Source: Candidatus Micrarchaeota archaeon
GTDB lineage: Archaea; Micrarchaeota; Micrarchaeia; Anstonellales; Bilamarchaeaceae
Direction of reading: 5' to 3'
Assembly: GCA_016212505.1 (NCBI GenBank)
Contig: JACRGB010000028.1
Location: 9,537 to 73,536, forward strand
DNA length: 64,000 nt
Shown: positions 92-4,223 of the stretch, in pieces
How positions within the stretch are numbered: the stretch's first letter is position 1
Layout: the number at the start of each line of letters is the position of its first letter
The notes under the pieces: model-generated
Databases searched by the model: none
Told to the model about the DNA's origin: nothing
Seen by the model: only the letters and a program-made list of their open reading frames with translations
Position numbers and translations under genes: made by a program

Positions 92-535
92 CTAGGGCTT
101 TTTAGAAAGTTTTTTCAGGCAACTAACAGCTCCTTCTTTTCTTTCCCATGGAACCAGAATATGATCATGGTAATATGCAGAAAACACGTTGCACGGGATA
201 TTTTCTTTTGCCAAAACTTCGGAAACCTTTGCATTCATGCCAACAGCAAGAAGATCAGAATGAATATTAAGAGTTATTATGGCAAAGGGGCCAAGAACTT
301 CTTTGGAACTCATTTGGCTCATATGATCTACAATTTCTCCAGTAAATAGCAGCGTCAATCCTTCATTTTCACGATAAATTGCTTTGATATAATTAAGATA
401 AGCAACCAACCCGCCTAAATATTCCTGCTCTATTGTAGCAATAAAATATTTTTCTTCTCCTAGTACAGGTGAGAGGTTTTTGAGGAGTTTTTTGAGGTTA
501 TTGATTCCGGCCATAAAAGTAGTATTAGCAGGCAA
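92..535 (-). CDS. ACT-domain (ACT_7-like) ligand-binding protein
   Basis: 147-aa ORF. The C-terminal segment NVFSAYYHDHILVP is typical of stand-alone ACT_7-type proteins. Motif recognition only. Confidence 0.5.
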   Translation of the reverse strand: MPANTTFMAGINNLKKLLKNLSPVLGEEKYFIATIEQEYLGGLVAYLNYIKAIYRENEGLTLLFTGEIVDHMSQMSSKEVLGPFAIITLNIHSDLLAVGMNAKVSEVLAKENIPCNVFSAYYHDHILVPWERKEGAVSCLKKLSKKP

Positions 536-585: not shown

Positions 586-1578
586 ATGAGGAGACTTATT
601 GAACCAACAAAGCAGCAGTTCCAAATACGATTCGACTTTGGAAGACACCTTACTTTAGAAGATGCTGCAAGCCTTAGGGCCAGATTCAATGCATTTAAGC
701 CTCAGATTTATGTCAAGGAACAGGGAGATATGCGAGAAAGCGAAAGGCTTGAAGAAACAATTGCTAGGAATGCTGCGTATAAAGCGGTTAGTAGAAGTCC
801 AAGTAAAAGAAGAAAGTTCTTAGCAGATGTTAGTGAACAACATAAAGGGTCTCCCATAAGGGAATTTGTTGTTGAGGAAGATGCAGTTCTTAGCCAAGGA
901 ATCCAAAAGACAATATATTTTGTCGAAGGGTACTCTCCTGCACAAATAGTTACCCATGGAAGAGCCTTTAGGAAAGCTTTGACGACAGATCCTCAAATAA
1001 TAAAATATTTATTCGAAGGAAAAATAACTGAAGTATTACATTTAAATGAGACCACACTTCGCGATTACACCCAAAGTCTGGTTATTGAGAGAAACAGTCG
1101 AATCATCAACGGCTTTGAAATGATGCTTATGGAGCTTCCAGAACTTGTTCTTAACATACATTTGATAAAAGAAATAAGGGTATTCGTAAGATATGGAGCA
1201 GTTCATGGTGCCATAGTACCAAAGGTAGCGGCTATGGGATTTGACGCAAGACTCTTAGATGATGCTCCCCCATCATTAGAAATAGATGAAAGGTTGATGT
1301 TGCAGATTAGCTTTGATGAAGGAAGAATATTAACTGATGCTGAGAAGATTCAACTTACATTCACCGACTTATATAAGAAATTGCTTCAACCTTCCATGGA
1401 AAGAACGCACACTGAACGTGTAAGAAAGCTTGAACTAGCATATCAAAAAGTTGGTGGCGAAAGCGGATTTTTAGAATTAGTCAGATCGGTTGCTGCACAG
1501 AGTACCGATGAGGCAATGTTCGAAAAACTATTGACAGATTCACTAATACCAATAAAAGAAGCCGTAGAAAAATCATAA
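586..1578 (+). CDS. hypothetical protein (no recognisable domain)
   Basis: 330-aa uninterrupted ORF, divergent from the ACT gene, with an AT-rich TATA-like stretch upstream. No motif recognised. Confidence 0.55.
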   Translation: MRRLIEPTKQQFQIRFDFGRHLTLEDAASLRARFNAFKPQIYVKEQGDMRESERLEETIARNAAYKAVSRSPSKRRKFLADVSEQHKGSPIREFVVEEDAVLSQGIQKTIYFVEGYSPAQIVTHGRAFRKALTTDPQIIKYLFEGKITEVLHLNETTLRDYTQSLVIERNSRIINGFEMMLMELPELVLNIHLIKEIRVFVRYGAVHGAIVPKVAAMGFDARLLDDAPPSLEIDERLMLQISFDEGRILTDAEKIQLTFTDLYKKLLQPSMERTHTERVRKLELAYQKVGGESGFLELVRSVAAQSTDEAMFEKLLTDSLIPIKEAVEKS

Positions 1579-1589
1579 ACAGCGGCAGA

Positions 1590-1652
1590 TTACAGTAATT
1601 CTCCTCTTGCCTGCTCTATTTGTATCCTTCCGACATCTTGCTTTCTTCTGAA
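1590..1652 (-). pseudogene. orphan copy of the last 20 codons plus stop of the translin gene
   Basis: The minus-strand translation FRRKQDVGRIQIEQARGELL-stop is identical to the C-terminus of the translin ORF at 2108..2170. DNA identity is 51/63, with every difference synonymous. No upstream ORF continues it. Confidence 0.8.
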
Positions 1653-1659
1653 AATCAGC

Positions 1660-1878
1660 TTATGCAGGAGACACGAGTCTTTTACTTTTCATTATAACAT
1701 TGAGTATATCTAAGGCGGTTTTACTTGCATCGAGAATTTCTATCTCAATTGGCTTTCCATTTTTGGCATAATGGGTTATGATATTCTCTTTTTGCTCTGC
1801 AAAATCAGGCTTTTCAGTTCCTAATTTTATCAGAAGAATGTCGGATTGTGGATCATATTCATATTTCATAGCGCTCAC
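1660..1878 (-). CDS. DUF2283-family protein (putative antitoxin)
   Basis: 72-aa ORF. YDPQSDILLIKL followed by IEIEILDAS is the DUF2283 pattern. It overlaps the upstream DUF4258 gene by 20 nt. Confidence 0.65.
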   Translation of the reverse strand: MSAMKYEYDPQSDILLIKLGTEKPDFAEQKENIITHYAKNGKPIEIEILDASKTALDILNVIMKSKRLVSPA

Positions 1879-2095
1879 TCTTGGCCTTATATAGGGTTAT
1901 TACAGTTTTTATTCCTTCTTTTTCCTCTACAATAACTCGAAGCACATAACCGTTTATTTTCTTCTGGAAGATTTTACGATCTCCATAACTATCGGAAATC
2001 TTATCTGGATTTTCCAAACAGGATAACAACAAATCTTCTCTTATCAGATAGCGAGTCATGCGCTCAAGAGCGTGATTGATAATGACTAGTTTCAT
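1859..2095 (-). CDS. DUF4258-family protein (putative toxin)
   Basis: 78-aa ORF. The N-terminal INHALERMTRY..I motif and its size are typical of DUF4258. It is paired with DUF2283 as in known two-gene modules. Confidence 0.65.
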   Translation of the reverse strand: MKLVIINHALERMTRYLIREDLLLSCLENPDKISDSYGDRKIFQKKINGYVLRVIVEEKEGIKTVITLYKAKSERYEI

Positions 2096-2107
2096 TTAAT
2101 CACATAT

Positions 2108-2170
2108 CTACAAAAGTTCCCCTCTAGCTTGCTCTATTTGTATCCTGCCAACATCTTGCTTTCTACGGAA
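2108..2170 (-). repeat. functional copy of the 63-nt translin tail, a direct repeat of 1590..1652
   Basis: Aligns base-for-base with 1590..1652 at the same codon phase, with 12 synonymous differences. Confidence 0.8.
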
Positions 2171-2659
2171 ATCAGGCAGCACCGAGTTGGAGAAACGCAG
2201 CGGAAGCAATTCATCATATATTGCTTCCATAAGTTCAAAGTATTTTTCAGCCTCTTTCCGTTTATTTTTCCTGAGTGATTCGTACATTTCCCTTTTCAGT
2301 TCGCCAATAGAGTCAAGGAGTCCAAGAATATATGGGATTGCAGGAACCTTAAGTTCCTTATAGCCAGGAATTTTCTTTTGCTCAATTACACTAAGAACTA
2401 TGCATGCTTCTGAATATTCCTGAAAAACATGATCTAAATGAGCTGGAAAATCTTCCTGGAGCTTTACAAGTTTATCAAGCCCTTCCTTGGCTTCCTTAAG
2501 ACTTTTTTTACCCTCAACCAGGTCGTGGGAATGCATTGCTTTGATCGCATTGGAGCAACAACGGACAATTTTGCGGTTCTCTGCCATTACGGTATCGAGA
2601 TTTTTTTCATCTTCAAACAGTTTTTTTTCAATATCTTTTATTCCGAGGTTAAGTGCCAT
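2108..2659 (-). CDS. translin-family protein
   Basis: 183-aa ORF, helical, with the RRKQDVGR...RGEL C-terminal signature seen in archaeal translin homologues. Confidence 0.6.
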   Translation of the reverse strand: MALNLGIKDIEKKLFEDEKNLDTVMAENRKIVRCCSNAIKAMHSHDLVEGKKSLKEAKEGLDKLVKLQEDFPAHLDHVFQEYSEACIVLSVIEQKKIPGYKELKVPAIPYILGLLDSIGELKREMYESLRKNKRKEAEKYFELMEAIYDELLPLRFSNSVLPDFRRKQDVGRIQIEQARGELL

Positions 2660-2697: not shown

Positions 2698-3411
2698 TCA
2701 CTTTTTAGTAAAACCAAAACTTTCGAAGAATTTCATTATCTGGGTAGGAAGAAGCCAGAGGTGGGTTGGGGAATCCTCAGAAGAAACATTAGTTGCAAGA
2801 GTTTGTAAGGTCCGTAGGTGCAGGGCTCCGGATATTGCAGATAATTTCTTTGCAGCATCTGAGTAGTTCTGGGCAGATTGGAATTCCCCTTCACTTAAAA
2901 TTATTGTTGCGCGTTTTTCCCGCTCTGCTTCTGCCTGCTTGGCCATAGCGCGTTTCATATCTTCAGGAAGTTCAATGTCCTGAAGCTTTATTGCAGAAAC
3001 ATCCACGCCCCAATCCTTAGTCTCTTCATCAACAAGCTTTTCTATTTCAATTGCAATCTTATCCCGATCTGCCAAAACAAAATCAAGCTCATTATTCCCG
3101 ACAACATCCCTTACTGCGGTCTGGGCATACTGGGCAATTGCAAAATTATAATCAAAAATTGCCATAACCACTTTTAATGGGTCAATAATTTTGTAATATA
3201 CAACAGCGGATATTTTCACTGGTACATTGTCCTTGGTTATTGCTTCCTGAGGCTGGATGGGGATGGTCTTGACACGCATATCCAGGGTGCGCAGATCATG
3301 GTAAAATGGTATGTTCCAGGCAAAGCCTGGCCCCACAACTGAATTGTATTTACCCCAAACGAACCGGACGCCTTTTTCATATTGGTTGATTATCGTAAAC
3401 ATAGTGATCAC
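2698..3411 (-). CDS. SPFH/Band-7 (stomatin/prohibitin-like) protein
   Basis: 237-aa ORF. SPFH core (ITKDNVPVKISAVVYYKI, AIAQYAQTAVRDVVG) followed by the AEAEREKRA coiled-coil tail. Confidence 0.85.
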   Translation of the reverse strand: MITMFTIINQYEKGVRFVWGKYNSVVGPGFAWNIPFYHDLRTLDMRVKTIPIQPQEAITKDNVPVKISAVVYYKIIDPLKVVMAIFDYNFAIAQYAQTAVRDVVGNNELDFVLADRDKIAIEIEKLVDEETKDWGVDVSAIKLQDIELPEDMKRAMAKQAEAEREKRATIILSEGEFQSAQNYSDAAKKLSAISGALHLRTLQTLATNVSSEDSPTHLWLLPTQIMKFFESFGFTKK

Positions 3412-4223
3412 TTCTTCTTTTTACTCTCAATTGTTTTATTATCGGTCTTTTTATCCTCGGCCTTTTTATCGTCAGAAACCTGCACGCCATCTATTGGCAG
3501 TATGAAATTCATAATATTAGTCTTATCAGCCGCCACACTTGAAATCATTTGCAACGTCCGTAGGTGTAATGCGCCTGGAGAGGCGCTAAGTATCTGCGCT
3601 GCTGCGGCAAGTTTCTCAGCAGCCATGCTTTCTCCCTCAGAAATTATAATTGATGCCCGCTTTTCCCGCTCAGCCTGAGCCTGCCGTGCCATTGCCTTTT
3701 TCATGGTGCCAGGCAGGCCAATATCCTGTATTTTTATCCCGATTATATCAACGCCCCATTCCTTTGCATGCTTATCTACTATCTCGGAAATAGACTGAGC
3801 GATTGATTTGCTATCGGTCAGCAGTTGATCGAGCGTCCTGCTTCCAACAACATCCCTTATTGCAGTTTGGCCGTGCTGATAGACTGCAGAGCGGTAATCC
3901 TGGACATTGAAAATCGCAATCTCTGGATTGACGATCTTGAAATATACCACCGCGTTTATGAATACGCTAACATTATCCTTGGAAAGAACTTCCTGTTTCG
4001 GTATATCGATTGTTTGTATTCGAAGATCAACAACACTCATTTGCTGGTAGAGTGGAATAATTACTTGAAGCCCACTATTTCGTAATCCTGAATATTTGCC
4101 TAAAGTTAGTACTAGCCCTTTTTGGTAATCATATATAACCCTGATAAAACCAGAAAGCAGGAAGAACACGCCCCCGAAAAAGAAGAGTGGGAGACAGCAG
4201 CTCAGCGTTTCAAAATCAACCAT
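3408..4223 (-). CDS. SPFH/Band-7 protein with N-terminal membrane anchor
   Basis: 271-aa ORF and paralogue of 2698..3411 (LSKDNVSVFINAVVYFKI, AQAEREKRA). Has an N-terminal TM segment and a 4-nt overlap with the downstream paralogue. Confidence 0.85.
   Translation of the reverse strand: MVDFETLSCCLPLFFFGGVFFLLSGFIRVIYDYQKGLVLTLGKYSGLRNSGLQVIIPLYQQMSVVDLRIQTIDIPKQEVLSKDNVSVFINAVVYFKIVNPEIAIFNVQDYRSAVYQHGQTAIRDVVGSRTLDQLLTDSKSIAQSISEIVDKHAKEWGVDIIGIKIQDIGLPGTMKKAMARQAQAEREKRASIIISEGESMAAEKLAAAAQILSASPGALHLRTLQMISSVAADKTNIMNFILPIDGVQVSDDKKAEDKKTDNKTIESKKKK

Follow-up and report, generated by a model that had tools for sequence, protein, structure and literature searches.

At the 3′ end of a translin-family gene in Candidatus Micrarchaeota archaeon (assembly GCA_016212505.1, contig JACRGB010000028.1, here C15), a 455-bp cassette with a predicted type II toxin-antitoxin (TA) pair, DUF4258 and DUF2283, is bracketed by two copies of the end of the translin gene. 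The stretch of DNA analysed, hereafter the window, comprises 64,000 nucleotides (nt; C15:9537-73536) of a metagenome-assembled genome of 1.48 Mb in 46 contigs. The locus is the scar of an insertion with long target duplication; the last 63–72 bp of the target gene flank the insert on either side, and no recombinase is encoded within it. According to the best reading, which is judged rather probable, host homologous recombination joined DNA of two diverged translin lineages around the promoterless TA cassette at the translin end. Along the minus strand, the translin gene (2659–2108) is followed after 12 nt by the DUF4258 gene (2095–1859), the overlapping DUF2283 gene (1878–1660), and the second copy of the translin end, termed the orphan tail (1652–1590). 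The features of the locus, in window coordinates and with lengths in amino acids (aa), are as follows.

2108..2659, minus strand: translin-family gene, 183 aa, the insertion target; Pfam PF01997, 29.5 bits against a cut-off of 25.9
2108..2170, minus strand: live tail A, the last 20 translin codons and a TAG stop, forming the left-hand direct repeat; with CTGATTT it extends to about 2175
2096..2107, minus strand: spacer from the translin stop to the toxin ATG, 12 nt, with a GTGAT Shine-Dalgarno-like motif as read from the sequence
1859..2095, minus strand: DUF4258 gene, the predicted toxin gene, 78 aa; Pfam PF14076, 36.7 bits against a cut-off of 25, E value 5.1e-9
1660..1878, minus strand: DUF2283 gene, the putative antitoxin gene; Pfam PF10049, 52.8 bits against a cut-off of 23, E value 4.5e-14
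1590..1652, minus strand: orphan tail B, the second copy of the last 20 translin codons with a TAA stop, forming the right-hand direct repeat
586..1578, plus strand: g330, a 330-aa gene of a fast-evolving family, which converges on the orphan tail
92..535, minus strand: ACT-domain gene (Pfam ACT_7 and ACT_3), the ancestral downstream neighbour of translin

Tails A and B can be aligned without gaps and share the codon phase; both encode FRRKQDVGRIQIEQARGELL followed by a stop codon. They differ at 11 of the 63 nucleotides, one fewer than the 12 given in a preliminary description of the locus, which had been made from the letters alone. Ten of the differences are located in eight sense codons and are all synonymous; the eleventh separates the stop codons, with A ending in TAG and B in TAA. 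The formal count that had been proposed there gives ten synonymous against no non-synonymous differences, together with the stop-to-stop change, and a pS of 0.63 by the Nei–Gojobori method, in which the non-synonymous counts come solely from averaged two-step paths (CGT/AGA and CTT/TTA) for which fully synonymous routes exist. When ten random substitutions were placed on the tail, the peptide remained unchanged in 0 of 200,000 trials. The homology of the tails extends 6–7 nt further upstream (CTGATTT), where the orphan carries a 1-nt T insertion, and in orphan B it reaches about position 1658, with this one extra T included. BLASTN accordingly aligns 68 nt at 83.8% identity (window 1591–1658 against 2109–2175, one gap), and the ungapped repeat measures 63 nt at 84% identity. 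The frame of orphan B has no ATG, GTG, or TTG start and is open for just 32 codons.

The nearest translin outside the genome, in a search of 5.8 billion proteins, has 87% protein identity (L041:1307-1859) and is located on a contig of 1,859 bp, whose end lies one base past the translin stop codon. Its tail differs from B at 6 of the 63 sites and from A at 15. At the 11 sites that vary between A and B, L041 agrees with B at nine and with A at none, which assigns approximately nine lineage-specific silent changes to the live copy and two at most to the orphan. Tail B is thus sister to the L041 tail. Simultaneously, A and L041 are silently diverged in 10 of 19 codons and the translin body and L041 in 72 of 155; because tail and body are equally diverged, A belongs with the resident gene. 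A and B therefore have different histories in two diverged translin lineages, were joined recently, and were under protein-level selection, each in its own gene, until recently. The proposal that the tails were selected in two different translin genes and then united is therefore upheld by the silent-only differences, by the stop-to-stop change, and by the three-way comparison with L041. The break of the L041 contig at the stop codon is of the kind expected if that population was also variable or repeated at this junction.

The resident translin itself does not look foreign when it is compared with its surroundings. Orthologue identities to four genomes of the genus range from 63 to 80%, and translin, at 64–70%, is typical. 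A scan of the translin body for a crossover point in twenty-codon windows against L041 gave silent-difference fractions from 0.21 to 0.60 without a step. The Band_7 neighbour of translin in L041 is a different paralogue from the one in the window. In the window genome, a genome search found a single full copy of translin and the orphan tail, with no further translin sequence.

As the preliminary description had stated, and as Pfam searches confirm, the interval between the tails (1653–2107; 455 bp) contains the DUF4258 and DUF2283 genes and nothing else. The two genes are small, co-oriented, and adjacent, with an overlap of 11–20 nt; the DUF2283 start is likely the ATG at 1869, inside the overlap with the toxin gene. 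The orphan tail begins about 0–7 nt past the DUF2283 stop, and a run of five T residues is located 3′ of the orphan stop codon. The cassette has 35% G+C compared with 41% for the genome, which weakly supports the recombination reading. A scan of the cassette for promoters and terminators gave nothing above chance and no terminator-like hairpin, and the 12-nt spacer is too small for a separate promoter. Since this spacer contains a GTGAT motif and no promoter-like site, the cassette is probably transcribed together with translin from the translin promoter. DUF4258 is listed among the BECR-fold toxins of the RelE/ParE superfamily (PMC11980606). In most of approximately 100 related loci DUF4258 stands directly upstream of DUF2283, and this gene context makes DUF2283 a putative antitoxin and the pair a predicted type II TA module, with toxin and antitoxin activities presumed. 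The exact DUF2283 protein of the window has no record elsewhere.

For the joining of the two lineages, we infer homologous recombination. The donor DNA would come from a relative in which the cassette was already present at the translin end. One crossover would fall in or upstream of translin, and the other at the short tail repeat or at the CTGATTT microhomology at its edge, which is the site of the 1-nt indel. Because the DNA downstream of translin varies between lineages, the tail would be the sole homology shared on the far side. As a result, the tail of one lineage would be fused to the gene, and the tail of the other lineage would be left as an intact-looking orphan. The same product could be reached by an alternative route, in which a circular molecule consisting of tail and cassette integrates through a single crossover.

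Several points weigh against this account. The longest exact runs common to A and B are 14 and 17 nt, a poor substrate for homologous recombination. The native tail is not distinguishable: the sign that B lies nearer to L041 than the gene body does is weak, with a nominal p of 0.02, and two of nine windows of the translin body are as close to L041 as B. Neither a true empty site nor a donor locus was seen, and the best foreign translin, at 87%, is on a contig ending at the stop. From a perfect repeat around a related cassette (L075, below), it is clear that duplications arise anew as well. How the first of all these duplications arose lies outside this account, as do this perfect repeat and the published cases of restriction-modification units. 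Furthermore, the family PF_DUF4258 has no characterised member (PMC11980606), which bears on the nature of the cargo.

Translin orthologues are present in 57 of 61 relatives, with 70% protein identity in the best genome of the genus. Downstream sequence is readable at 29 genus loci; at about 18 of them, the ACT-domain gene directly follows translin on the same strand after 5–75 nt. Other genomes have, after translin, a pair of 73-aa and 168-aa genes, a HEPN gene, a methyltransferase, or convergent housekeeping genes. In the window, approximately 1.57 kb of extra DNA, namely the TA pair, the orphan tail, and g330, is located between translin and the ACT-domain gene. The preliminary description had expected an empty site in which translin converges on the 586–1578 gene; in its place, the relatives show translin running directly into the ACT-domain gene. 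Since this interval is uninterrupted in those approximately 18 loci, g330 is also an insertion, a second and separate one between translin and the ACT-domain gene. All relatives of the genus have a single translin tail; the empty site is seen at genus level only, since the relatives have 70% protein identity or less apart from the one 87% fragment.

The junction downstream of translin is variable, yet it is not a recurrent target for the cassette, and the suggestion that the translin tail marks an integration hotspot fares poorly. Across the 176 genomes of the order, no other orphan translin tail was found; G010 and G151 each gave a second match, a weak one on another contig. Likewise, a translin gene beside the cassette, the pairing that had been proposed as a check, was found at none of 80 metagenome cassette loci. 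In one genome of another genus, G136 (L035:924-1740), a lone DUF2283 gene lies 34 nt after translin, with neither DUF4258 nor an orphan tail, and it is the sole genome of this kind. In a relative within the genus (L023, genome G030), a gene with a HEPN domain is convergent on the translin stop.

Relatives of the cassette are scattered. DUF2283 relatives occur in just 9 of the 176 genomes of the order, and related pairs are present in Micrarchaeota, Aenigmatarchaeota, Marsarchaeota, Thermoplasmatota, Hadarchaeota, and Thaumarchaeota, in addition to one Dehalococcoidia genome. The DNA upstream of the toxin gene was compared with the DNA after the antitoxin stop at all loci with enough flanking sequence, and control intervals of the same geometry were treated alike. 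Significant flanking direct repeats were detected at 9 of 88 cassettes compared with 1 of 132 control intervals, and their length among related cassettes varies from 17 to 148 nt. The individual cases are as follows.

L033/L145: repeat of an aminotransferase tail, LNEAMDRINKFFKK against LEETMDRIDKFFRK, each followed by a stop
L165: repeat of a SecY-like tail, 50 nt with three differences, all silent
L085: repeat of a gene tail, 37 nt
L075: perfect 59-nt repeat (2664–2722 and 3211–3269) inside a gene on the opposite strand
L146: 63-nt repeat
L148: 148-nt repeat
L157: 40-nt repeat with one indel
L082: 37-nt repeat around a 1-kb insert with DUF2283 and without DUF4258

Where the repeat is a gene tail and the junction is clear, the right-hand repeat starts 0–12 nt past the DUF2283 stop (window, L033, L075, L085, and L165), and the left spacer measures 8–88 nt (window, L033, L085, and L075). 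The two aminotransferase tails in L033 differ by five silent and four conservative codon changes, with the stop codons TGA and TAA. When six gene-tail duplications are pooled, 22 codon differences are silent and 8 are replacements (73% silent), compared with approximately 40% silent in our own estimate for a duplication followed by orphan drift. In three orphans the stop codon is altered and is still a stop. From these patterns, exchange between lineages seems common for such scars.

The module itself is supported as the mobile unit, as had been proposed, since it is present in 9 of 176 genomes, at many targets in six archaeal phyla and one bacterial metagenome-assembled genome, and with flanking repeats at 9 of 88 loci.

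Further observations concern single cassettes. L075 is nested (L075:2143-3485): the cassette interrupts the 3′ part of a gene, and the displaced end is followed by a second, distant DUF4258/DUF2283 pair. In L082 (2222–3300) and L157 (2416–3034), two organisms carry insertions at one orthologous position, on the upstream side of a ThiI-like gene, with homologous repeats of 37–40 nt; their DUF2283 proteins are closely similar by eye, and the partner is DUF4258 in L157 and a set of 88-aa and 121-aa genes in L082. In three cassettes at different targets, the motif TCAGAAGTAATTTA is located upstream of the toxin gene (L151, about 340–360; L152, about 2465–2480; L165, about 2450–2465); it may be a cassette-borne promoter, and the window cassette lacks it. 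In L152, from Marsarchaeota, the cassette is located directly past an apparent tRNA 3′ end (GGTTCGAATCCCGG...), with a 19-nt repeat at 2430–2448 and 3009–3027. A supposed orphan tail of HMG-CoA reductase (L034, L088, L089, and L155) was set aside, as it is just a 17-nt match inside the next gene and was treated as due to chance or too decayed.

In addition, comparison of the window genome with itself revealed at least five further pairs of short direct repeats (33–130 nt), each bracketing a single insert and duplicating the end of the neighbouring gene.

C4:22340-23400: PIN_2 toxin pair between 130-nt repeats
C26:3555-4173: small two-gene unit behind a duplicated SRREKKDQQKL tail with its stop
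C18:7157-8460: 395-aa gene behind AKKKESAGKKK with its stop
C37:2868-4229: AAA_14/DUF4143 ATPase; the orphan tail is now the C-terminus of the inserted gene
C32:5422-6761: AAA_14/DUF4143 ATPase

A RelE-like assignment of the gene pair in C26 was dropped, as Pfam did not confirm it. The same scar around unrelated cargo points to a process at the level of the host rather than to an enzyme encoded by the cassette. No integrase or other mobility gene was found in the 455-bp insert or beside it, and no terminal inverted repeats were found at the cassette ends.

These results bear on a first alternative, in which a site-specific recombinase acting in trans moves the cassette as a miniature integrative element, with the tails as attL and attR and a replacement gene end carried by the incoming element. 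Integrative elements with a surrogate end at the 3′ ends of genes are well known, in tRNA genes and as e14 in icd. The genome encodes two tyrosine recombinases, on the contigs C14 and C38, and the L152 cassette is located at a tRNA 3′ end with a 19-nt repeat. However, no recombinase is located in or adjoining the cassette, and cassettes 50–75% identical are found at unrelated targets, including an aminotransferase, a SecY-like gene, HMG-CoA reductase, the interior of a winged-helix-like gene on the opposite strand, and intergenic DNA. The repeats vary from 17 to 148 nt and share no conserved core between loci, and unrelated cargo in the same genome bears the same scar. With no linked integrase and with relatives at different target genes, a site-specific integrative element is an unlikely explanation. 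The preliminary description had left two mechanisms side by side, and recombination with a diverged relative is the one that fits best; the site-specific 3′-end element lost ground through the missing integrase, the unrelated targets, the variable repeat length, and the insertion into a gene interior on the opposite strand. Other types of mobile DNA are equally poor matches. The 0–7 nt past the DUF2283 stop leave no room for the attC site of an integron cassette (about 57–140 nt), and the lack of terminal inverted repeats, together with duplications that are long and variable in length, sets the cassette apart from transposons, insertion sequences, and miniature inverted-repeat transposable elements.

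It is also improbable that the orphan tail was kept because it is still in use, either translated after a frameshift from the DUF2283 end or serving at the nucleotide level as the original 3′ untranslated region and terminator context of the operon. The orphan is in frame with DUF2283 but for one extra T and one stop (TAA GCT GAT TT(T) C...), the orphan in L033 is in frame behind two stop codons, and the one in C37 forms the C-terminus of the inserted ATPase; five T residues also follow the orphan stop. Against such a role, the orphan has no start codon and is separated from DUF2283 by both a stop and a frameshift, and the scan yielded no terminator-like hairpin. A function at the nucleotide level would, moreover, leave the match of B to the coding tail of another lineage unexplained.

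Little probability is given to an in-place duplication of the target at insertion, followed by divergence within one lineage and with no foreign DNA. New duplications are indeed seen in the cassette family, as in L075 with its perfect 59 nt and in L157 with 40 nt and one indel, and for restriction-modification units the published interpretation is a long target duplication (PMC2853133). However, all ten sense differences between the window tails are silent, which none of the 200,000 random sets matched, and the orphan stop has changed and is still a stop. About three quarters of the changes in a drifting orphan should alter the protein. In a neutral orphan, substitutions should also accumulate faster than at silent sites of the live gene, not several times more slowly; L041 gives the reverse pattern, with about nine changes assigned to the live copy and two at most to the unconstrained orphan, and drift of the orphan is disfavoured on this ground. 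An in-place origin of the copies at translin is thus strongly disfavoured. An assembly chimera of two co-occurring strains, one with translin and the cassette and the other with translin and the 330-aa gene, is hardly credible: the genome is metagenome-assembled in 46 contigs and the contig of the nearest foreign translin is broken off right at the stop codon, but the exact shared runs of 14 and 17 nt are too short for a k-mer join, a chimera would not set a lone tail exactly 1–7 nt past the DUF2283 stop, and the architecture recurs in independent assemblies of other studies and five more times in the genome itself.

Recombination between translin lineages can be set beside several known systems. 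Insertion with long target duplication was described for restriction-modification units (Nobusato et al. 2000, Gene 259:99; Furuta, Abe & Kobayashi 2010, NAR 38:2428, PMC2853133). The criteria used there are repeats longer than 30 bp, variable repeat length, a single copy at the empty site, and an insert below 20 kb without a mobility gene; the repeats often span the stop codon, the mechanism is unknown, and the cases are bacterial only, with no archaeal case passing the screen (PMC2853133). The window locus shows all four features, with a repeat longer than 30 bp, an empty site at genus level, an insert below 20 kb with no mobility gene, and a length that varies between events. The likeness extends to an addiction-type cargo, to direct repeats above 30 bp of variable length, and to the lack of a transposase or integrase. 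In contrast to those units, the cargo here is a predicted type II TA pair of 455 bp and the host is a DPANN archaeon. The published repeat pairs are nearly identical (44/46 and 47/47), whereas the window copies are 17% diverged at silent sites only, which argues for exchange between lineages and not just duplication. In the literature, no paper was found on insertion with long target duplication for type II TA cassettes or in archaea.

The e14 and phage 21 elements in the icd gene of E. coli and the islands in tRNA and tmRNA genes resemble the locus in that an incoming replacement end keeps the gene intact and the displaced end becomes an orphan on the far side. However, elements of the e14/phage 21 type have their own integrase and one fixed attachment site; the window cassette has neither, and its relatives occupy many targets. 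A second likeness is to homology-facilitated illegitimate recombination, which was reportedly described in naturally transformable bacteria by de Vries and Wackernagel in 2002 and by Prudhomme et al. in 2002. As in that process, a one-sided homology anchor is combined with a microhomology join, which here is CTGATTT exactly at the orphan edge; that process is bacterial and usually involves deletion of recipient DNA, whereas the window locus is a duplication. In the C-terminal displacement arrays of rhs and cdiA, a new gene end arrives with a small module of the toxin-immunity type through recombination near the 3′ end, and the displaced ends stand downstream, as at translin. The swapped end of rhs and cdiA is the toxin domain of a large polymorphic toxin, in contrast to the window, where the gene is a housekeeping gene and the protein sequence of its tail is unchanged.

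Two neighbours of the locus have features of their own. The product of g330 has no match in Pfam or NCBIfam and no close homologue among the 5.8 billion proteins. Its family is present in 16 of the 176 genomes of the order, with three paralogues in the window genome, sited among housekeeping genes, and no flanking repeat was detected around g330. The AlphaFold model is confident, with a predicted local distance difference test score (pLDDT) of 91.6, and no fold in the PDB matches it (best E value 0.7, with a template modelling score below 0.25). Residues G19, H21, E114, R169, G204, H207, and G218 are invariant, with an N-terminal FGRH motif; taken together, the data suggest an unrecognised enzyme. 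A role of g330 as a recombinase was rejected, as neither a family nor a fold match supports it and the paralogues lie among housekeeping genes. On the other side of translin (2698–4223, minus strand), two overlapping SPFH/Band_7 genes are located between translin and a UMP-kinase-like gene, in the orientation opposite to that in genome G021 (L141). They are 88% and 79% identical to the G021 copies, compared with 63–79% for the neighbouring genes, which suggests that the two genes were inverted in place or exchanged.

The spread of TA pairs between chromosomes without a mobility gene is poorly understood, and for 25 years the insertions with long target duplication seen at bacterial restriction-modification units have gone without an explanation. 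The translin locus adds an archaeal TA example, accompanied by eight or more sister cases from six archaeal phyla and by five further scars within its own 1.5-Mb genome, and a model in which host homologous recombination uses a short tail repeat as one arm. In such loci the conserved coding tail acts as a natural clock, since the pattern of silent and replacement changes tells a drifted orphan from a selected one; here the orphan was under selection until recently, and the copies therefore stem from different lineages. For annotation, short orphan gene ends beside small cassettes should be read as recombination scars rather than as pseudogenes of a second gene copy. More tentatively, a mobility cycle that requires no cassette-encoded recombinase can be proposed, by which TA cassettes and further small ones of the defence type would move in DPANN archaea, and probably also in ultra-small prokaryotes of other groups. 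A first insertion would duplicate 20–150 bp of a gene end, and the repeats would then let the cassette leave as a circle with one copy of that end. Host homologous recombination would dock the circle at the matching gene end in other lineages, and each transfer would bring a foreign working tail and leave the tail of the recipient as an orphan. Within this possible cycle, conserved gene tails would serve as portable attachment sites.

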